Positions 5,583-36,945 are shown, numbered from the stretch's first letter. The stretch is 64,000 nt of DNA from an uncultured virus (IMG/VR IMGVR_UViG_3300032322_002907) (IMGVR_UViG_3300032322_002907), one strand, 5' to 3'. Numbers and translations are program-made. Notes: generated from the sequence alone by a model not told the origin.

Positions 5583-5584
5583 AT

Positions 5585-5660
5585 TGGTCCCGCCTCCTGG
5601 TTATGCTCCAGGCTCTCTGATTCTTCAGACCAGCGCTTTCACTAGATTAGCTTAGGCGGG
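5585..5660 (-). tRNA. tRNA-Phe(GAA), non-canonical T-loop
   Basis: All stems pair, loop CTGAAGA, T-loop AGCATAA, CCA. Confidence 0.8.
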
Positions 5661-5663
5661 TAT

Positions 5664-6024: not shown

Positions 6025-6732
6025 TTACTTTGCCTTTTGATTGTCAATCCATTTTTGTGCTTCAGGTGTTTGCTCTTTTGAAGATACAACTTTTCCGAAG
6101 TGTTTATGTAAAGCATCAAGTTTAGATTTATGTTGTGCTCTTTCTTCTTTAGATGCGCTTGTTATATCGATAGAATTGTCTAGTTCATTAAAGTTGTGAC
6201 CAAACATATCTTTATAATGTGGTTTTGCATTATGCACACCTGTCCACTTTTCTTGACGAATCTTTTCATTCACTTCACGCCCACCTAACTTGCCTCTTAA
6301 AACATTTCTTTCGCGAGAAGTTTTATTATCAGTATGAACATAAAGCATATGTGTTTGATAACCCAAACCCTCAAGATGATCTTTCATTGCTTTAATCTTA
6401 TGAGGGTCATCACCTGTACCATTAATGATTATACCATTTCTTCCATGCAATGACAATGATTTTTTTAGTTCAGTCGTATGTTTCGCTTTTGCACGAAGTA
6501 AATCTCTCTGAGGTTGTTCGCTATCAGGCATTTTTGGATCTAACCCATGTTTTCTCATGGCATGTTCAAGTGCAACGTCAGAATTTATTTCTCGCAATCC
6601 GTGACCTGCTAATGCCTTGTGCATAACAAAATCTTTTCCAGATCCGGGAGAACCTGCCATAAAGACTGCTCGGAAGATGCCTTTATCATTAACACCTTCA
6701 TCTAGTAGAGTAAATTCTTTGAATGAAAACAT
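6025..6732 (-). CDS. P-loop kinase (AAA_33/zeta-toxin-like), putative head-packaged protein
   Basis: FMAGSPGSGKD Walker A, INSD, IINGTG, RERN lid; N-terminus MFSFKEFTLLDE. Confidence 0.8.
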   Translation of the reverse strand: MFSFKEFTLLDEGVNDKGIFRAVFMAGSPGSGKDFVMHKALAGHGLREINSDVALEHAMRKHGLDPKMPDSEQPQRDLLRAKAKHTTELKKSLSLHGRNGIIINGTGDDPHKIKAMKDHLEGLGYQTHMLYVHTDNKTSRERNVLRGKLGGREVNEKIRQEKWTGVHNAKPHYKDMFGHNFNELDNSIDITSASKEERAQHKSKLDALHKHFGKVVSSKEQTPEAQKWIDNQKAK

Positions 6733-7084: not shown

Positions 7085-7219
7085 TTAAACTGTTTCGAAA
7101 TCTTCTTTGCCAACACCACATTCTGGACAAAGCCAATCTGCAGGCAATTCTTCAAAAGGAACTTCACTATGTTCTTCGTGTACATATCCACAAACTACAC
7201 AAACATGTTCGGTATTCAT
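7085..7219 (-). CDS. rubredoxin (44 aa, not in ORF track)
   Basis: Hand translation MNTEHVCVVCGYVHEEHSEVPFEELPADWLCPECGVGKEDFETV; ATGA overlap with rubrerythrin. Confidence 0.9.
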   Translation of the reverse strand: MNTEHVCVVCGYVHEEHSEVPFEELPADWLCPECGVGKEDFETV

Positions 7220-7665
7220 AGACCCTCCAATACTTTTTGGTAAGCGTTTGCATGGCGCTCTTCAACTTTCTTCAGAGCTGCAAAACGTTTTTCTGCAATT
7301 TTTAGAACTCTTTTGAAGTTTTCAGCATGTTCGCGTGATTCATTTGTTTGGTGTTTTGCTTCAAGCATTGCTTGTTCATTGCCTTCAAGTTCTGCTTCTT
7401 CCTCCATACGAGGATACATTTCAGTATACTCATATGTTTCACCATCAATTGCCATACGCAAACAAGTTTCAGTATTGGGCTTGCCGATAAGAAGCTCTAG
7501 GTGTCCCCATGCATGTTTAATTTCTTGATTTGCGGTTTCTTCGAAATGTTTTGCAACATCTTCAAAACCCTCTTCACGGGCAATTTTAGCGAAATAACGA
7601 TACTTAATATGTGCCATTGATTCGCCAGCCAATGCACTCCTTAGGTTTTTCATAGTTACATCCAT
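7216..7665 (-). CDS. rbr: rubrerythrin
   Basis: NLRSALAGESMA...KYRYFAKIAREEG...EIKHA...GETYEYTEMYP...EHA diiron motifs; AAGGAG RBS. Confidence 0.9.
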   Translation of the reverse strand: MDVTMKNLRSALAGESMAHIKYRYFAKIAREEGFEDVAKHFEETANQEIKHAWGHLELLIGKPNTETCLRMAIDGETYEYTEMYPRMEEEAELEGNEQAMLEAKHQTNESREHAENFKRVLKIAEKRFAALKKVEERHANAYQKVLEGL

Positions 7666-7683
7666 AAACATCTCCTTAAAAAT

Positions 7684-7758
7684 TGGCTCCAGTGGCTGGG
7701 ATCGAACCAACGACAAACGGATTAACAGTCCGCTACTCTACCGCTGAGCTACACTGGA
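7684..7758 (-). tRNA. tRNA-Asn(GTT)
   Basis: Cloverleaf, CCA. Confidence 0.93.
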
Positions 7759-7846: not shown

Positions 7847-7921
7847 TGGTAGGGGCAGAGGGAGTCGAACCCACAACCTCGACGTTAAAAGCATCTTGCT
7901 CTACCATTGAGCTATACCCCC
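7847..7921 (-). tRNA. tRNA-Lys(TTT)
   Basis: Cloverleaf, loop CTTTTAA, CCA. Confidence 0.9.
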
Positions 7922-7927
7922 AAATTT

Positions 7928-8002
7928 TGGTACCGGATACTGGGATTGAACCAGTGACCTCTGCTTTATCAAAACATTGCTCTCCCGCTGAGCTAATCCG
8001 GT
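7928..8002 (-). tRNA. tRNA-Ile(GAT)
   Basis: Cloverleaf, loop TTGATAA, CCA. Confidence 0.88.
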
Positions 8003-8003
8003 A

Positions 8004-8093
8004 TGGTGAGTAGAGAGGGATTCGAACCCCCAACGGTTCCTAAGTAACGGATTTACAGTCCGCCGCGACACTCACCACCTTCGCCGTCTACTC
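8004..8093 (-). tRNA. tRNA-Tyr(GTA)
   Basis: Cloverleaf with long variable region, loop CTGTAAA, CCA. Confidence 0.9.
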
Positions 8094-8097
8094 ATTT

Positions 8098-8698
8098 CCA
8101 TATTGAAACACACTATAAACTTCTTGGTAGGAGAAGCATCCTTCGTTGGGCTACCACCGCCAACTACACGGCCTGTAATGTGTTTCAATATGGTCAAACA
8201 GGGCAGGGGATGGACGCATCTTCCGTTTCAAACGATAGTCCGGACTATCTACGCGGTCGAAGTTGGTCTTTAGTCTGCAACCTCACCTCTGGGGCTCACG
8301 GTTACTTCCTGTTTGATACCATATTGAAACACACTCGACCATCTCTTTTTTAGGCATCAGACCGGAGCGACCGGGGCTTGAAATGCTTGGCGATATCCTG
8401 TTTCGAAGCAGGGATGGACAGAACGCCGCAGTGTAAATGTGTTTCAATATGGTCCGAGACTCGAACTCGGCATGTAAGCGGCTTCGCAATCGAGTAGCGC
8501 AATTTCCCTAGCACTGACTAACACAGGTTAATTAAGCCCGCTCTCATCAGTGAAGCCTACACAGCTTCCTGCACCATATTGAAACACACTTGAGGTAACC
8601 GTGACAAGCGGGGGCTTTTTACACCTCTCTACCTGCATGCTCACCAGACAGTCACATCTGTTCTGAGAATGCTTTCGATTTAGTATGCTTCAATATGG
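8098..8698 (-). repeat. array of six 17-nt elements in alternating orientation enclosing five unrelated structured inserts (putative ncRNA array)
   Basis: CCATATTGAAACACACT at 8098, 8319, 8574; near-perfect reverse complements at 8177, 8436, 8682. Confidence 0.9.
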
Positions 8699-8772
8699 TG
8701 CCCCAGGAGAGACTCGAACTCTCAAAATTTGGCTTCTAAGACCAACACGTATACCAATTCCGTCACCGGGGC
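8696..8772 (-). tRNA. tRNA-Leu(TAG), short variable loop
   Basis: Cloverleaf, loop CTTAGAA, A73; its CCA is shared with the first repeat element. Confidence 0.88.
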
Positions 8773-8800
8773 AATGCAAGCAAATTTTTAAAGTACAATT

Positions 8801-8920
8801 TAGGACCTTTGTCCTTGCTACAAGCCCCACCGCGCTCTGTAGCGTGGCGCCCAACTGTCCAGCGCCTTTCCCTATTCGCCTCATGCATCAGAATTCACTG
8901 ACGACTTAGAGAGGTCTTTA
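8801..8920 (-). ncRNA. putative structured ncRNA between tRNAs
   Basis: GC-rich; closing GACCT/AGGTC; hairpins TCAG/CTGA, GGCGC/GCGCC, GCTACAGAGC/GCTTGTAGC. Confidence 0.55.
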
Positions 8921-8925
8921 GATTC

Positions 8926-9020
8926 TGGTAGTAGGTAAGGGATTCGAACCCTTCCGTTTCAGCCCATCTGACCGATCTCCAGGGTTTATAAGACCCCGCC
9001 GCACACCAGTGCTACCTACC
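8926..9020 (-). tRNA. atypical 95-nt tRNA with UAU anticodon and long variable arm
   Basis: Acceptor GGTAGGT/ACCTACT, D-arm GCAC-TGGT-GTGC, loop CTTATAA, T-arm GGGTTCGAATCCC, ACCA. Confidence 0.8.
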
Positions 9021-9041
9021 GTTCATTCATTCAACAGGTTA

Positions 9042-9070
9042 ATTATATATGCGAAATCTTGGGTTGTAAA
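9042..9070 (-). promoter_or_regulatory. sigma70-type promoter of tRNA/ncRNA operon
   Basis: TTTACA-17nt-TATAAT with A-rich upstream tract. Confidence 0.8.
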
Positions 9071-9111
9071 GCAGTTTTTGAACTTTTTATTTTTGTTGTT
9101 TTCTTGCAACG

Positions 9112-9309: not shown

Positions 9310-9345
9310 ATCATACAGATACACAGGGGGGCGTGTCAAGCCCCC
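9310..9345 (-). promoter_or_regulatory. sigma70-type promoter overlapping a GC hairpin after hsp20
   Basis: TTGACA-18nt-TATGAT; the -35 sits in the loop of GGGGGC/GCCCCC. Confidence 0.5.
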
Positions 9346-31288: not shown

Positions 31289-31756
31289 TTAGTTTTCGTT
31301 TATCCACATAGCCGAGTTGGCTGGGGTTTCCATAACTTTGACAAGTCGCAATTTAACACGACCATCAGAGTATCCGTTTTCAGGCATCCAAATTTCCTGA
31401 ATGTAATCTGCCAGAAATTTAGAAAGGCCTTCACAACCTGTGCGTTCTACAACAACCATCTTACATAGTTTCTTTTCGTGCAACATTTCGAATGTTTCAA
31501 ACTCAGGATCATCTTCTGCAACCAACAAAGTATGATCAAACCATTCGTCAAGTTTTTCTTTGAGAGATTTATATCCTCCAAAGTCAACACACCAATTGCG
31601 ACGGTCAAGTTTGTCCTCATCGCATTCGAATTCAAAGTGAAAAGCAAGTGCATAACCATGAATAAGATTGCAATGTGAATCAGCACGCCATTGACGATAT
31701 GCTACAGCGTATCCTCTCTCATGTCCATATGTTTTAGTTGAAATAAATTTTCCCAT
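31289..31756 (-). CDS. queD: 6-carboxytetrahydropterin synthase
   Basis: HCNLIHGY, VDFG, FDH, E motifs; Que context. Confidence 0.88.
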   Translation of the reverse strand: MGKFISTKTYGHERGYAVAYRQWRADSHCNLIHGYALAFHFEFECDEDKLDRRNWCVDFGGYKSLKEKLDEWFDHTLLVAEDDPEFETFEMLHEKKLCKMVVVERTGCEGLSKFLADYIQEIWMPENGYSDGRVKLRLVKVMETPANSAMWINEN

Positions 31757-32374
31757 TCAATCACCTATGTAGTAAGGGTTCTCAAGAGTAATAAATTTGC
31801 TAACTGCAAACAAAGATGAAAAATTAAAATCCATATGATGTAAAGTATTCGGGGGTGTACTATGAGAACCCTTGAAGGGTGTCGATGATATATTAAGTGC
31901 AGCATCATAAAACATGGGTGAAATTTCATTTCGAAAAAGATACAAGTGTTCGTGGTCATAAAGTAGACAAGAAAATGTCCCATCAAGGTTGTTTAAGTTA
32001 TCCCTATTTTGTGTAATTGTCTTTAACATTAAAAAAGTATCCCACTCACACACTTCTTCTAATTCTTTTTTTAGCTTTTGAATATATGTTTGTTTTAAGA
32101 TACCATTATGCCACAAATACCGACCATCATACTGTGCAGGATGTATTGATGAAGTCTCTTGTGTCGTAGGTGCTTGTGAGTGGATGATAATATAAACAAG
32201 AGGTGATTGTTCAACATTATCAAAATTGATAGCACCCTCATATCTGTTGACGGTTAGTTTACCTGTTACAACATCATAATAACTAATTGAGTGAGCGTAA
32301 TCACCCCTTTGAACATTATGTTTATATAAGTCGATCAATTTCTCTTTTTTAAACGACCCGATAATGCTACACAT
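31757..32374 (-). CDS. class II (Ntn) glutamine amidotransferase-like protein
   Basis: N-terminal MCSIIG, HP, WHNG, DGTFS. Confidence 0.75.
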   Translation of the reverse strand: MCSIIGSFKKEKLIDLYKHNVQRGDYAHSISYYDVVTGKLTVNRYEGAINFDNVEQSPLVYIIIHSQAPTTQETSSIHPAQYDGRYLWHNGILKQTYIQKLKKELEEVCEWDTFLMLKTITQNRDNLNNLDGTFSCLLYDHEHLYLFRNEISPMFYDAALNISSTPFKGSHSTPPNTLHHMDFNFSSLFAVSKFITLENPYYIGD

Positions 32375-33119
32375 TTAGAAGTTTACTCCATGGAATGTTT
32401 GCTGAGTAAGGAATGGGGTCAACAAGACCTGCCTTTGCAAAGTTTGCAATTCTCTCAGAACATGATGGGCACTTTCCGCATGAATGTCCTTTATCATCAG
32501 GATTATAACATGTAAGCGTGTTTGCCAACAAGTCAACATTACCATCAAGATGTTGCAAAACTTTAATTTCATCAAATTTGCTTAATCCTGCGAAAGGTGC
32601 AATAACTTTGATCTTGATGATTCTGTTTTCAGAAAGAACATCATTTACTTTACTTACGAACCTTGCAGTCGTATCATGATACCCATACTCATCGTGAATT
32701 TGTAAACCCATAACGATGGTATCAAAACCTTCAACTTCAGCAAAAGCTGCTGCTACTGACATGAGAATCATATTACGATTCGGGACATAAGTTTTCGGGC
32801 GAGGATCACCTAACACATCCTTAATCGTAGGCATATTAATATCAGTGTCTACATTTGCAGAGAAACCTTTACTAATTTCTCCCAATACAGACAAGTCAAA
32901 TACTTTGTGCTTAACTCCAAGATGTTTTGTTGTAAACTTTGCCTTTTCAATTTCAATAGATTGTCTTTGACCATAAAAGTATGTAAGAGCCCTTACATTA
33001 TCTTTGCCATATTTTTCTATACACAACCTCAAAGAAATCGTACTATCCATACCGCCCGATAAAATAACTATTGCACCTTTAGTATCGGGTAACTTAGCTA
33101 GAATATCTTCAATCATCAT
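32367..33119 (-). CDS. queC: preQ0 synthase
   Basis: SGGMDS, YVPNRN, TCY...CGKCPSC. Confidence 0.93.
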   Translation of the reverse strand: MMIEDILAKLPDTKGAIVILSGGMDSTISLRLCIEKYGKDNVRALTYFYGQRQSIEIEKAKFTTKHLGVKHKVFDLSVLGEISKGFSANVDTDINMPTIKDVLGDPRPKTYVPNRNMILMSVAAAFAEVEGFDTIVMGLQIHDEYGYHDTTARFVSKVNDVLSENRIIKIKVIAPFAGLSKFDEIKVLQHLDGNVDLLANTLTCYNPDDKGHSCGKCPSCSERIANFAKAGLVDPIPYSANIPWSKLLNV

Positions 33120-34048
33120 TGCCTCATGGTTTTGTTCACTAGACATTTCGTTTCCATTAGAATCATTGACTCTGCATTTAGAATAAGTTCACTTGATGCA
33201 CGAATCGGGTTTATGTCAATACCCCCTCGCCTTGTATAAAGACAAGCAACAAACAACTCATCAGGTTGCAGTATATCATAAAGTCGTTTGTAAATACATT
33301 CACAAATTTCTTCATGAAAGTGATTTTCTTTTCGCATTGAGACAATATATTGCAAAAATGATTGTGGGGTTATCGTTTTTTCCCCTCTGATATAGACGAA
33401 AACATCCCCCCAATCTGGTTGATTAGTAACCCGACAATTTGAACGAAGAGCAGAGGTATGATAGCGAGTATCGCTAAGAGCGTGTGCACTAACAACTTCC
33501 AGCAAAGAAGGATCTTCATTGTATGCATTAAAATCAGTTTTAGTTACATCAATGGTTTCATCAACAAACCAAAAATAGTTTGATAGGGGTTGTGAATTAT
33601 ACATGAAAACTTGTTTTTGACGATGGAAGGTCGCGCTTACCTTACATTGCAAAAGTTTTGATAAATCAGATTCAACTTTTTGCTTAATAATGATTCCTGC
33701 CATGTCAACAGAATCACAAAGTTTTACCATATTAAAAGAATTCAAATATAGCTTCAATGATTTGGATTCAACGATATATTTTGAATTCGCAGGATAGAAA
33801 ATTTTCAGCGTTCCTGAGAGAGGGAACCCACTTGTAAGCAATGTTGAAAACTCATAACAATTCCAAACATCACCCCCAACAAAAGGCAAATGAGCATCGT
33901 CGATGTTGTATTGTGTTCTATTTAGTTGGCGAGGAACAGCAACAAGAAGCGCTGGGTCAATTTCATCTGGTGTTACATAAGGTTTTACAACTGACCCATC
34001 ACCTGCTTTTCCTAAGTGTACGGATGCGATTTCTTCGATTGTATTCAT
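33116..34048 (-). CDS. queF: NADPH-dependent preQ0 reductase, bimodular type
   Basis: IVESKSLKLYLNSF, SNCRVTNQPDWG, FHEE, YTRRGGIDINP. Confidence 0.92.
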   Translation of the reverse strand: MNTIEEIASVHLGKAGDGSVVKPYVTPDEIDPALLVAVPRQLNRTQYNIDDAHLPFVGGDVWNCYEFSTLLTSGFPLSGTLKIFYPANSKYIVESKSLKLYLNSFNMVKLCDSVDMAGIIIKQKVESDLSKLLQCKVSATFHRQKQVFMYNSQPLSNYFWFVDETIDVTKTDFNAYNEDPSLLEVVSAHALSDTRYHTSALRSNCRVTNQPDWGDVFVYIRGEKTITPQSFLQYIVSMRKENHFHEEICECIYKRLYDILQPDELFVACLYTRRGGIDINPIRASSELILNAESMILMETKCLVNKTMRQ

Positions 34049-35364
34049 TGAAAAAGGTCCTCAAGAGATCCATGATTTTCTTCACGGACAATTCGTTTAC
34101 TTTTTATGTTTGACTTTGCAGCATTCAACCAAGACAACATAGTTATATCATCACGTATATTTAGCAGTTTGTCGATATGTTGATTGCCTGAAGTTGTCTC
34201 GACTAAAACTTTATCGATACAAGATACAAAATTATCAATTTGAAAATATGTATGCATAGCTTTTGACAAGTATGCAATAATTAGTTTTTCATCTGATAAG
34301 TTAGCTGCACTTTCTTTAACTGTTGAATATTTCCAATCACGAATTCCATCACCCAAAATAATATCAAGATACTCATCCTCACTGACCTTAGGCGAAAGGT
34401 AATTGTAAAAGAGGTTGTAGACATTCCTAAAGTGTGCTTCACCTTTTGGTGTTCGAACACTACCCAACGGTCGGCATGTTCCATTGACTTTCAATAACCC
34501 ATAATCAAAGGTAGATGTGTGGGAAGAACTGTCATATGATACTTTTTCAAATGTATCTAGGTAACCTGACTTATTCAAATAAAGAATTGGACGCATACGT
34601 GAGATACTACCCACACCCAAGATGTGCAAATGCTTTTTGATGTTATCATGGCAAATCATTGAAATGTGTTTAGCACCTCGCAACATTTCAATCGATTCAA
34701 GTTCACCATTACCCATGCAAGTATCGGCTATCGCCATACCACTAATAAAGTCATAATCTTCGTGTTCAAGTTCATTAACAATCATGTTAAAAAAGGTAAT
34801 CATATCCTGATATGTGTTACCTTGAATAATAGGAATGACTTTGGTTTTTGCACCCAATGATTTAAATGCTTCGATCTGTTCCTTAATATTCTTACCTGTC
34901 AATGTGCCTTTCTCTGCATGTTCGGATGACTTGAAAATTTTATTTCCGACATTCGATCTTTCGTTACGTGTGCGCGTGATACTGAAAGAACCCAGTGCAA
35001 TCTCATCAAAACACATTGCATAATCGGCTGCAGTTTGTGTCTTATAAATTTGTTGCTTGATTTCAGGTGTGATCTTTTTACCTGCAGTAACGATTTGCAA
35101 CCCGCCTGAGTCGGCATACAGTTTTTTTGCCCCGAGATTGTTTAGAACGGCAAATCGTTCTGTAAATCCAGATTCGGTGTAACCATTAAACAAAGTAGCA
35201 ATAGTTGGGTTTGTATTCTTTGCCTTTCTTTGTACACTTTCGTTTAAACATTTCATCAATTCAAGCAAACTTGATTTCCACGCTTCTCGGTGGTTATCAT
35301 AAACTTGATTGGTAAAAACACCCATCATACCACAGGCGCTTATTACATACTCGAGGTTAATCAT
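34045..35364 (-). CDS. dpdA: TGT-fold DNA base-exchange transglycosylase (DpdA/DpdA2-like)
   Basis: ADSGGLQ, FDEI, PIIQG, HILG, SYDSSS; embedded in Que cluster. Confidence 0.8.
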   Translation of the reverse strand: MINLEYVISACGMMGVFTNQVYDNHREAWKSSLLELMKCLNESVQRKAKNTNPTIATLFNGYTESGFTERFAVLNNLGAKKLYADSGGLQIVTAGKKITPEIKQQIYKTQTAADYAMCFDEIALGSFSITRTRNERSNVGNKIFKSSEHAEKGTLTGKNIKEQIEAFKSLGAKTKVIPIIQGNTYQDMITFFNMIVNELEHEDYDFISGMAIADTCMGNGELESIEMLRGAKHISMICHDNIKKHLHILGVGSISRMRPILYLNKSGYLDTFEKVSYDSSSHTSTFDYGLLKVNGTCRPLGSVRTPKGEAHFRNVYNLFYNYLSPKVSEDEYLDIILGDGIRDWKYSTVKESAANLSDEKLIIAYLSKAMHTYFQIDNFVSCIDKVLVETTSGNQHIDKLLNIRDDITMLSWLNAAKSNIKSKRIVREENHGSLEDLFQ

Positions 35365-36035
35365 CGCTTGTTTACCAAGTTCATGAACTCAGCACGCACT
35401 GCTTGATCTGATTTGAATTCGCCACCCAGCTTACTAGTAATTGTTGATGAACCAACATCTTCTACGCCGCGTGATTTGACACAATAATGTTGAGCATCAA
35501 TAAGAACAGCAATGTCATCAGTGCCTAGAATATATTGCAAGGCATGATAAATTTGTTCAGTCAATCGTTCTTGAATTTGTGGGCGTTTACTAAAGTATTC
35601 AACCACACGATTGATTTTACTCAATCCCAATACTTTCTCTTTTGGAATATATGCAACGGTTGCCTTTCCGTCGATAACTACAAAGTGATGTTCACAGTTT
35701 GATTGCACATTGATATTACGCTCGATAACCATCTCATCATACTTCATCTTATTATCGACCGTTGTACATTTAGGAAATGCTTCAGGATCAAGACCCCAAA
35801 AGATTTCGTTGACAAACATCTTTGCTACACGATTTGGAGTCTCTTTCAAACTATCATCCTTCAGATCAAGACCCATTACTAACATGATATATTCAAAGTG
35901 TTTTTGAATTTCTGTAATCTTTTCCTTATGTGTCAAAGGATTCGACCACATGGGAGTCTGAACTCCACATTTGATTAGATGTTCGTGAATTTGTTGACCC
36001 AACTCAGGATCGGTTTTTGTTTTATTGAATGACAT
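35361..36035 (-). CDS. folE: GTP cyclohydrolase I
   Basis: ETPNRVAK, CEHH, GLSK, QIQERLT, HYCVKSRG. Confidence 0.96.
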   Translation of the reverse strand: MSFNKTKTDPELGQQIHEHLIKCGVQTPMWSNPLTHKEKITEIQKHFEYIMLVMGLDLKDDSLKETPNRVAKMFVNEIFWGLDPEAFPKCTTVDNKMKYDEMVIERNINVQSNCEHHFVVIDGKATVAYIPKEKVLGLSKINRVVEYFSKRPQIQERLTEQIYHALQYILGTDDIAVLIDAQHYCVKSRGVEDVGSSTITSKLGGEFKSDQAVRAEFMNLVNKR

Positions 36036-36059
36036 ATTATCCTTCCTTACGCGGATAGT

Positions 36060-36899
36060 TTAAGTACCCCATGCATTTTTAAACAAGGGGACCTGTAAGC
36101 GATCTGAATAACGATAGCCTCTTGACATCGCCAATTCAGCCACCCTCTTATTATTTAGCGAATACACACTCTCTACACCACCAACAGGCATTAGATAAAC
36201 AGGACCTTTAAATCCTGCTTTACGATAAGCAGATACAGCGTCTTCGATTTCCTCACTATCTTCTTCGCCAGTTACAACAAATTTTAAATATGTAAACCCA
36301 AGTAGTTCATAATCACACACCACGTCTGGCTTAATTGCATCTTCCCACTTCTCACCACTTACACTCAATTTAGGACTTACACTAAATGTAACTTCGTAAA
36401 TGTTGCTATCATTTAATAGGTAATCAAAAAATTCACTTGTTAGACTCTGTGTACCATTCGTTTCAAATGTGACTTCCTTTAAATTACGAATCAAATCATG
36501 TTCAAGAAGTTCAGGATACGCTCGTTGCCAACCCAACAAAGGTTCGCCGCCTGTAATGACTAGGTGTTCTTCTTTCCATTGCTTATGTGGGAGTAGATCG
36601 ATGATAGCTTTGGCGATAGCATCTGTATCAAGAAGTGGAGACATATGCTTAAAGCGAGGATCCCAACTAGCGTAAGAATCACACCCGGTATTAACCAAAG
36701 GAAGATCTCTGTATTGGTTATAGAATGTAATATTTGCAGCCACATCGTCTCGTTCATGACTTATCTCTCCTCGTGGCATACCGAAACCACCACAGGTAAA
36801 ATTACATCCAAATGTTCGAAGAAAGACACTAGGTACACCCATGTATCTACCTTCACCTTGTATCGAATAAAAAAGTTCACTCACCTTAATCTTTTGCAT
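36060..36899 (-). CDS. queE: 7-carboxy-7-deazaguanine synthase (radical SAM)
   Basis: SIQGEG, GCNFTC...CD, ITGGEP, ETNG, SPK. Confidence 0.92.
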   Translation of the reverse strand: MQKIKVSELFYSIQGEGRYMGVPSVFLRTFGCNFTCGGFGMPRGEISHERDDVAANITFYNQYRDLPLVNTGCDSYASWDPRFKHMSPLLDTDAIAKAIIDLLPHKQWKEEHLVITGGEPLLGWQRAYPELLEHDLIRNLKEVTFETNGTQSLTSEFFDYLLNDSNIYEVTFSVSPKLSVSGEKWEDAIKPDVVCDYELLGFTYLKFVVTGEEDSEEIEDAVSAYRKAGFKGPVYLMPVGGVESVYSLNNKRVAELAMSRGYRYSDRLQVPLFKNAWGT

Positions 36900-36945
36900 A
36901 CATCCCCCAATAAAAAGCACATGATATAAGAATATTTAGCAGAAA

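Follow-up and report, generated by a model that had tools for sequence, protein, structure and literature searches.

The 601-base array at positions 8098–8698 of the DNA of an uncultured virus (IMG/VR IMGVR_UViG_3300032322_002907), of which a stretch of 64,000 nucleotides (nt), hereafter the window, was analysed, comprises five independent RNA modules, lined up within the tRNA operon that a T4-like freshwater myovirus carries on the minus strand. Hairpins closed by one common helix, here called the stalk, make up three of these modules, each enclosing its own cargo, and they alternate with two free-standing RNAs. The stalk is a real, widespread and uncatalogued RNA element, i.e., a covarying, AU-rich RNA helix of two turns that stands in exact register with tRNA 3′ ends and bears structured cargo of hypervariable sequence. 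As to its role, we put the probability at about 0.5 that the stalk is an RNA-level processing and carrier helix, which RNase III or another RNase specific for double-stranded RNA would cut and whose arms would also be recombination breakpoints. An earlier reading of the same DNA, hereafter the original prediction, had proposed both a standard carrier stem and an interlocking switch at this site; its carrier-stem idea is broadly right, whereas its switch idea is probably not.

The array and its modules

The array is delimited by the 17-nt arm CCATATTGAAACACACT, which, with up to three mismatches allowed, has exactly six matches in the window, whereas shuffled sequences contain 0.32 matches on average and none of 100 shuffles reaches six. 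The copies start at 8098 (+), 8177 (−), 8319 (+), 8436 (−), 8574 (+) and 8682 (−), with 0, 1, 0, 1, 0 and 2 mismatches, respectively. The stretches between them measure 62, 125, 100, 121 and 91 nt, exhibit a GC content of 0.48–0.54 (vs. 0.35 for the arm and 0.38 for the window) and, when compared with each other, have only matches of 8–10 nt in common, which is the chance level. On the minus strand, which is the tRNA-sense strand, all arm mismatches are G–U pairs, located at arm positions 11 and 14 in the first hairpin and at position 16 in the other two, whereas on the plus strand the same mismatches are A·C. Six mechanically called open reading frames (ORFs) of 54–74 amino acids (aa) overlap the array, but each spans module borders, and none of the six matches a PHROG family at E ≤ 0.01. 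Thus, the original prediction was accurate as to the coordinates and alternating orientations of the six arms, the five unrelated GC-richer inserts and their lengths, the lack of a credible ORF in them and the wobble character of every arm mismatch on the tRNA-sense strand. However, it treated the five inserts as equivalent, which they are not: the unit conserved elsewhere is a hairpin of the form 5′ CCA…UGG 3′, which encloses only the first, third and fifth inserts (62, 100 and 91 nt). The array therefore consists of three stalk hairpins (5′ CCAUAUUGAA…UUCAAUAUGG 3′) with cargos of 91, 100 and 62 nt in RNA order, alternating with two free-standing RNAs of 121 and 125 nt.

The modules are described here in RNA order, all on the minus strand, and their homologues come from a family set compiled by an exact 15-mer scan of IMG/VR viral contigs, which comprises at least 131 loci (L001–L131); all counts for the family are counts among the loci listed. 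The array is preceded by tRNA-Leu(UAG) (8696–8772; called by ARAGORN, 60.4 bits with the Rfam tRNA model), the first stalk being based on the discriminator A and CCA of this tRNA. Since the 3′ end of this tRNA lies at 8696, its CCA (8698–8696) constitutes the first three bases of the arm, a reuse of the CCA that had been proposed previously and is borne out by the ARAGORN end. Stalk hairpin 1 (8574–8698) is composed of the 5′ arm (8698–8682), cargo a (8681–8591; 91 nt, two hairpins) and the 3′ arm (8590–8574), with A8699 pairing with U8573, and its fold is far more stable than those of shuffled sequences (z = −5.6). Cargo a has homologues of 83–95% identity in L110, L099, L028/29, L070 and L032, and an RNAalifold consensus of five sequences, a small sample, contains 41 pairs, seven of which are changed on both sides. 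In the same cargo (8591–8681), the loop of the first hairpin carries the string GUGAC, which is complementary to GUCAC in the region of the second hairpin. Because neither string varies among the five homologues, although one of these has an identity of only 83%, a loop–loop contact is possible, yet it lies beyond the reach of covariation.

Free-standing module b (8453–8573; 121 nt) follows, which has a T-arm-like hairpin at its end and then A-CCA, has no closing stem of its own and recurs with 99% identity in L110 and L099. Module b contains the string CUGAUGAG and was considered as a hammerhead ribozyme; this was rejected, since it has no hammerhead match in Rfam and, on reading, no stem II/III arrangement. 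Stalk hairpin 2 (8319–8452; 5′ arm 8452–8436, cargo c 8435–8336 of 100 nt, 3′ arm 8335–8319) has a fold z score of −3.9 vs. shuffles and homologues in L110, L019 and L032; the RNAalifold consensus of cargo c, from a small sample of three sequences, has 44 pairs, three of which are changed on both sides. Free-standing module d (8194–8318; 125 nt) possesses its own 7-bp closing stem followed by A-CCA, similar to an acceptor stem, with a fold z score of −2.1 and copies in L031 (93%) and L057 (98%), and the pairing of its closing stem is kept in L031 through two double changes. A 9-base string is common to cargo c (8336–8435) and module d (8194–8318), with E = 0.13, and may be due to chance.

Stalk hairpin 3 (8098–8193; 5′ arm 8193–8177, cargo e 8176–8115 of 62 nt, 3′ arm 8114–8098) has a fold z score of −5.1 and copies of 97% identity in L057 and L028/29. 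A match of this hairpin to the mir-653 family is spurious (24.9 bits vs. the 77 needed). Four nt after the last stalk arm begins the class II tRNA-Tyr (8004–8093), a 90-nt stretch that is 100% identical in L110; ARAGORN shortens this tRNA to 8004–8084, whereas its acceptor stem, as read from the sequence, begins at 8093. Modules b and d thus occupy tRNA slots between the hairpins and, because both end in A-CCA, the next stalk begins on them just as the first stalk begins on tRNA-Leu. Small as these samples are, the compensatory changes in cargos a and c are in keeping with selection on structured RNAs.

The stalk family and its helix

At least two copies of the arm (with up to three mismatches) occur in 102 of the 131 loci, nearly always as a close inverted pair, and 93 of the 131 contain tRNAs (542 in total), with no locus carrying tRNAs on both strands. 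When the loci are oriented by their tRNAs and identical copies are removed, 125 distinct hairpins are obtained, with interiors of 23–130 nt. On the upstream side, 61 of the 125 start exactly on the CCA of a tRNA called by ARAGORN, 30 come after another stalk with a non-tRNA stretch in between (mostly 107–186 nt), 23 lie 20–1089 nt after a tRNA, and 11 have nothing upstream within the locus. On the downstream side, 16 of the 125 share the first two G of the next tRNA, and a further two dozen or so stop 4–16 nt short of a tRNA; many hairpins end 0–17 nt before the next tRNA. The tRNAs of the stalk-bearing arrays encode their CCA in 489 of 508 cases. The isotypes that precede stalks are not evenly represented: Leu (17 of 33), Glu (14 of 38), Lys(UUU) (9 of 24), Ile(GAU) (5 of 19) and Gln (5 of 22) do so, whereas Asp (0 of 35), Met (0 of 37), Ser (0 of 35) and Cys (0 of 22) never do, a bias that may reflect common descent of tRNA-plus-stalk units.

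The 125 hairpin interiors fall into 94 unrelated clusters, in agreement with the idea of a standard carrier stem common to unrelated inserts. The possibility that the cargos are tRNA-like was rejected, since a strict T-arm is found in only 5 of 125 interiors (and in none of the reverse-complement control). A search of window positions 7900–9100 against Rfam 15 at E ≤ 10 gave only tRNAs with scores that reach the gathering thresholds, and 20 related loci (62.8 kb, E ≤ 0.01) gave 142 matches, which are tRNAs or overlap tRNAs except for one group I intron, and none of which lies on stalk cargo. The Rfam run that had been suggested as a check thus assigns no insert to a known family. In the locus of one stalk-bearing tRNA array, a group I intron match (L042, 404–599) scores 71.1 bits, above the gathering score.

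The stalk family is large and uncatalogued and, as far as searched, confined to tRNA arrays of uncultured freshwater viruses. An 18-mer scan of cellular (species-representative) genomes returned 10 loci, six of which are lone matches, whereas the other four are tRNA arrays on short contigs of freshwater metagenome-assembled genomes (MAGs), probably binned phage DNA. Against 50,697 phage records, blastn of window positions 8000–8800 matched in tRNA parts only, and the stalk hairpin at E ≤ 10 matched four records at chance level only; no cultured phage with the stalk was found in these collections. No protein co-occurring with the stalk was found when 14 window ORFs near the array were compared by tblastn with the stalk loci (± 1.5 kb). 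A literature search by arm 10-mers gave only primers or unrelated sequences among the matches listed, a search on phage tRNA arrays with hairpins or inverted repeats gave nothing relevant, and a catalogue of viral structured RNAs (PMC10690425) has no stalk match in its main text or in the six supplementary files searched.

Evidence that the helix is formed at the RNA level comes from the pairing of the two arms. Over the 17 arm positions of the 125 hairpins, read on the tRNA-sense strand, there are 1901 Watson–Crick pairs, 192 G–U pairs, 23 A·C mismatches and 9 other cells, and position 16 is U–G in 100 of the 125 hairpins. The excess of G–U (192) over A·C (23) supports the selection on RNA pairing that had been suggested from the window alone. 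Of 124 hairpins, 93 have an A and 21 a G before the CCA, 102 have a U after the UGG, and 96 possess one additional inner pair; with the flanking discriminator–U pair and this inner pair, the helix is typically 19 bp long. The stalk is thus an AU-rich helix (30% G–C pairs) with the consensus 5′ A-CCAUAUUGAARCACAYU…AGUGUGUUUCAAUAUGG-U.

Since every locus was fetched by the canonical 15-mer, the set is biased towards canonical arms, and for this reason a scan without seed was run, which looked for CCA…TGG closing at least 16 pairs in 216,066 nt. It returned 141 distinct hairpins, compared with 2 in the reversed sequences, and in 30 of the 141 the arms differ from the canonical sequence by more than three changes and are still fully paired. 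Among 68 distinct arm pairs, changes on both sides are seen at 14 of the 17 positions (152 cells), and 1132 of 1156 cells are paired, whereas re-dealing the arms gives a mean of 929 and a maximum of 970; since pairing was a criterion in the choice of this set, the reversed sequences provide the fairer control. The helix length, with one mismatch allowed, peaks at 19–20 bp (72 of 141) and ranges from 17 to 29 bp, the lower bound being imposed by the search, which selects for at least 16 pairs.

These data bear on the proposal that the stalk acts primarily at the DNA level, with the arms serving as recombination handles or as the ends of a selfish palindrome (similar to miniature inverted-repeat transposable elements (MITEs), REPINs or PeSL cassettes), and the RNA hairpin being incidental. 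Such an element would account for the gain, loss and swap of modules with breakpoints in the arms (see below), as well as for arms that are as conserved as the adjoining tRNAs while the cargos are unrelated. However, the preponderance of G–U over A·C on the transcribed sense strand and the compensatory changes by which divergent arms keep the helix would not be expected of it. In addition, the stalk never occurs on the strand opposite to the tRNAs, its flanks are a tRNA discriminator and a U, and the sequences around it yielded neither a transposase nor an endonuclease gene. A MITE- or REPIN-like element in particular was rejected, since the internal sequence is not common to the copies (94 clusters among 125 hairpins), unlike that of MITEs, and no direct-repeat target duplication is present. 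We therefore regard a primarily DNA-level role as improbable, although a single-stranded DNA hairpin on the coding strand is conceivable.

Module exchange, folding and proposed release

All five window modules recur in near-identical form in other contigs, in other combinations. The clearest comparison is offered by the orthologous interval between tRNA-Leu(UAG) and tRNA-Tyr, which contains a-b-c-d-e in the window and a-b-c in L110, both tRNAs of L110 being 100% identical to those of the window. The alignments of L110 to the window overlap on one 17-nt arm, so that the 221-nt difference has both of its ends in two direct-repeat arms. In the same interval, L099 carries a-b followed by a stalk with an unrelated 45-nt cargo, and in L028, the tRNAs of which are 90% identical, there is just one stalk, the cargo of which measures 99 nt, with cargos e and a located elsewhere. 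The module order a-b-c-d-e is also that of the nearest record to the window, G001, a fragment of 41.8 kb with its start within this array. Contigs from riverine and freshwater RNA libraries likewise match single modules exactly to their borders with unlike flanks; they cover modules a, c and d and tRNA-Ile, and a joint between cargo c and module d, which spans the common arm, is present in two runs. The check that the original prediction had put forward, i.e., that the arms should be constant while the inserts differ in how many there are, in their order and in what they are, is thus borne out by the Leu–Tyr relatives and the RNA-library contigs. Since the arms are identical on every stalk, they would also serve as recombination breakpoints at which modules are added, deleted or swapped.

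The modules that lie upstream of stalks without being called as tRNAs were compared for a closing stem. In a bounded test, 12 of 35 such modules vs. 14 of 140 controls have one, a modest excess, the set being mixed with missed tRNAs and divergent stalks; a first, unbounded test on these upstream modules was without discrimination.

Inverted repeats flank every insert, and recombination between inverted arms could in principle flip the segments between them. However, among the 125 cargos there are 94 non-self matches in the same orientation and none in the opposite orientation, no recombinase was found among the scanned ORFs, and the arms are only 17–20 bp long. The original prediction had ranked inversion of DNA as the less likely course; with no cargo seen in both orientations, an invertible switch is disfavoured, and we consider invertible segments here to be barely credible.

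A further proposal concerns the way in which tandem stalks fold, since each inner arm may pair with either neighbour. For the isolated 609-nt RNA, the nested fold, in which b and d are enclosed and the outer arms are paired, is the unconstrained optimum at − 219.7 kcal/mol, whereas the serial fold, in which a, c and e are enclosed, is predicted at − 208.4 kcal/mol, and the minimum free energy (MFE) structure of growing prefixes flips between the two. The two exclusive folds of the original prediction are hence both computable, and a structural switch that toggles between them would present either inserts 1, 3 and 5 or inserts 2 and 4 and so regulate RNA release; in such a switch, the complementary arms that flank b and d would pair and the closing stem of d would stack on them. 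What is not supported is the idea of a conserved switch. Stalks are mostly single between tRNAs (61 of 125 abut a tRNA, and 23 more follow a tRNA at a distance, without an upstream arm), relatives with one or three modules exist, and no conserved feature is specific to the second fold. Moreover, identical arms make alternative pairing unavoidable in any tandem array. The second fold is therefore a consequence of tandem placement rather than a conserved feature, the interlocking alternative looks like a by-product of identical stalks in tandem, and a regulatory switch is very unlikely. We infer that sequential, co-transcriptional folding would favour the serial hairpins.

In the reading that we prefer, the stalk would act as a cis-acting double-stranded RNA that allows non-tRNA cargo to ride in a polycistronic pre-tRNA transcript and then to be separated from its neighbours. 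The hairpins would fold one by one during transcription, after which a double-strand-specific endonuclease, most plausibly the RNase III of the host, would cut the two-turn helix. The upstream tRNA would keep a short tail, to be trimmed to the CCA by exonucleases, RNase P would free the downstream tRNA, and the cargo would be released, capped by the remaining helix. A cut by the host RNase III, or by another RNase that is specific for double strands, is the most likely step, although we give it somewhat less than an even chance. RNase III is rated highest because divergent stalks keep the length and continuity of the helix rather than its sequence, and also because it is nearly universal in bacteria and reportedly participates in the processing of T4 tRNA precursors. 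Its substrates are uninterrupted double-stranded RNAs of about two turns, and the stalk, with a length peak at 19–20 bp in a set for which the search demanded at least 16 pairs, is of this kind.

The main alternative, though an unlikely one, leaves the helix uncut. The usual tRNA enzymes would then act at its borders, RNase E or RNase Z after the CCA and RNase P at the next tRNA, and the intact 19–20-bp stalk would remain as an exonuclease-proof cap, by which the cargo would become a stable small RNA and the upstream CCA would be shielded until release. Such processing would explain why all 61 tRNA-abutting stalks are in exact register with the CCA. It also fits the junctions downstream, where 16 of 125 hairpins share their final two G with the start of the next tRNA and many others end 4–16 nt before one, as well as the conserved pair between the discriminator and the U that follows the UGG. 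However, RNase E requires single-stranded RNA, whereas its site here would lie inside the helix, and the CCA is an anti-determinant for many RNase Z enzymes, yet it is encoded by nearly all tRNAs of these arrays. Furthermore, in roughly half of the stalks at least one of the two sides is without a predicted tRNA. An analogy is offered by a herpesvirus, in which, according to PMC4838037, a tRNA-like element and the hairpins downstream of it are released by tRNase Z.

Returning to the carrier helix cut by a double-strand-specific RNase, several points weigh against it. A nuclease that recognises structure only leaves three observations unexplained, i.e., the exact CCA register in all 61 tRNA-abutting cases, the canonical arm sequence kept over 94 unrelated cargos, and the isotype bias, although the second objection is inflated because every locus was fetched by the canonical 15-mer. 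No RNase III gene was found among the scanned window ORFs, so that the enzyme of the host must be assumed. An A·C mismatch occupies arm position 8 in 14 of 125 hairpins, and the selection for pairing in the covariation set counts on the same side. The nested fold is predicted to be 11 kcal/mol more stable than the serial fold for the full 609-nt RNA, and the fold of module b is not significantly more stable than those of shuffles (z = −0.76). Finally, the RNA-library data are contigs, which are uninformative on ends, strand or expression level, and the parts of the array that they leave uncovered carry no meaning.

Genomic setting, related systems and significance

Pfam and PHROGs scans of the window ORFs identify the window as that of a T4-like myovirus, with matches to RegA, the gp44/62 clamp loader, the gp45 clamp, the major head protein, portal, sheath, terminase, the late sigma factor, UvsY and a gp46/47-type nuclease, and the public runs that contain window DNA are lake and freshwater metagenomes. 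All 21 tRNAs that ARAGORN calls in the window are on the minus strand. Two sigma-70-like promoter matches, both of them consensus matches only, lie on the same strand, one at 9042–9070 upstream of tRNA-Ile(UAU) (TTTACA-17-TATAAT, 11/12) and one at 9339–9310 upstream of tRNA-Ser, and a promoter/terminator scan found no terminator-like site inside the array. The array would thus belong to a minus-strand tRNA transcription unit, as far as consensus matches can indicate, and the match at 9042–9070 is the likely start of the transcript that bears it.

Other non-coding sequences in the same tRNA region are also of interest. An 81-nt non-tRNA module at 5583–5663 (−), between tRNA-Gln and tRNA-His, folds into a cloverleaf-like structure (− 30.5 kcal/mol), with three hairpins, of which the central one has a 4-nt loop in the place of the anticodon loop, and with a 7-bp closing stem that precedes A-CCA. 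ARAGORN makes no call on this module, which looks like a tRNA-shaped RNA that would be unable to decode. A 153-nt stretch at 8773–8925 (−), between tRNA-Ile(UAU) and tRNA-Leu, has neither a stalk nor an Rfam match, is 96% conserved in L110 over 116 nt (up to the end of the L110 locus) and has a predicted fold of − 47.4 kcal/mol; it is probably another structured RNA module. The adjacent 95-nt class-II-like tRNA at 8926–9020 (−) has the anticodon UAU and is called as Ile by ARAGORN, whereas Rfam gives only a tRNA-Sec-like match of 35.5 bits, below the gathering score; copies of 93–97% identity occur in L028, L078 and L032.

Among protein-coding genes, the tRNA region includes a 235-aa P-loop kinase-like ORF (Pfam Zeta_toxin/AAA_33) and a rubrerythrin-like ORF, at 6025–6732 and 7216–7716 (−), respectively; the former has no PDB or NCBIfam match. 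Elsewhere in the window, a cluster for 7-deazaguanine (preQ0) synthesis at 31289–36920 (−) contains QueD-, QueC- and QueE-like genes and two GTP cyclohydrolase genes, and a long block of sugar-modification genes extends from about 13.5 to 24.4 kb.

Of the known systems, the stalk may work most like the processing stalks of rRNA operons, by analogy of form. RNase III processes helices on both sides of the 16S and 23S rRNAs in the rRNA operons of bacteria, as well as sites in the early transcript of phage T7. As there, the phage stalk is a double-stranded helix of about two turns, formed by sequences to the left and right of a functional RNA within a polycistronic transcript, and it is proposed to release this RNA. 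In contrast to these systems, the phage stalk is anchored on the CCA of a tRNA, and at least 94 unrelated small cargos, the release of which is putative, make use of one and the same arm sequence.

By position, the stalk is closest to the theta ribozymes, yet without their defining features. According to PMC10879173, these minimal ribozymes, similar to the hepatitis delta virus (HDV) ribozyme, adjoin the 3′ ends of gut-phage tRNAs and possess a conserved catalytic double-pseudoknot core, and only 4.5% of the tRNAs associated with them encode a CCA. Both elements are thus cis RNA elements directly at a phage tRNA 3′ end and are proposed to handle the 3′ trailer. However, the stalk differs in that its helix includes the encoded CCA and in that it is found in freshwater rather than gut phages. 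A start within ± 1 nt of the tRNA end is seen in 61 of 125 stalk hairpins, whereas the CCA-less tRNA end that accompanies theta ribozymes is not. Nor is a theta or HDV-like core found in the stalks, the 23–130-nt interiors of which fall into 94 clusters among 125, with no HDV-type Rfam match in the window or in the 20 related loci.

Among phages, the closest precedent is the pair rnaC (species 1, 139 nt) and rnaD (species 2, 119 nt) of T4, which are likewise structured non-tRNA RNAs of unknown function, located together with, and oriented like, the tRNA cluster of a T4-type phage. The T-arm-like hairpin near the 3′ end of rnaC resembles that of module b. However, the T4 region (L132) has no stalk on reading, and homology of the array to the species 1 and 2 RNAs was not found, blastn of window positions 8000–8800 matching in tRNA parts only.

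Three further systems are similar in part. The TMERs of murine herpesvirus MHV68 consist of a tRNA-like element followed by two pre-miRNA hairpins and are processed by tRNase Z (PMC4838037); like the stalk hairpins, they are viral hairpin RNAs directly downstream of a tRNA-shaped element, with release by the tRNA-processing machinery, which for the stalk is putative. In contrast, they are eukaryotic miRNA precursors that depend on Pol III and Dicer, and they have neither a common stalk sequence nor a large structured cargo. PeSL cassettes are short conserved stem-loop repeats scattered in a variable region of T4-type genomes, where recombination shuffles modules (PMC2839356); whereas a PeSL combines a promoter with a terminator and flanks protein ORFs, the stalk adjoins RNAs, is free of features of a promoter or terminator and exhibits covariation at the RNA level. 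Bacterial Y RNAs (YrlA, RF02553) combine a long stem with a structured, sometimes tRNA-like module, and YrlA-like RNAs are reported in phages (PMC4201824). The only match to RF02553 scores 16.3 bits (E = 3.2) and lies over tRNA-Tyr and tRNA-Ile, not over the stalk, and the Rsr-binding motif GNCGAAN0-1G, as given in PMC4201824, is absent from the canonical 5′ arm as read from the sequence. No match to Ro60/Rsr (TROVE) was found among the 24 ORFs scanned with Pfam and the 48 scanned with PHROGs, which are part of the window ORFs of an incomplete genome.

Phage tRNA clusters have held unexplained stable RNAs since the species 1 and 2 RNAs of T4. Here, in many uncultured lake phages, one conserved helix ties at least 94 unrelated structured RNAs together, places them in exact register with the 3′ ends of tRNAs and offers a simple sequence handle by which hundreds of candidate phage small RNAs can be found. 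The stalk also suggests a defined processing step, and its identical arms provide a mechanism for the gain, loss and swap of RNA modules between phages. More tentatively, and with the odds clearly against it, the stalk may be the universal socket of a phage small-RNA cassette system, in which hundreds of unrelated RNAs would be swapped at the arms in an integron-like manner and released with a helix cap, the cargos and tRNA-shaped modules acting as decoys, sponges or inhibitors of host defences that target tRNAs or sense RNA. If it is true that the cargos are anti-defence RNAs, such arrays would be an RNA counterpart of anti-defence gene islands.

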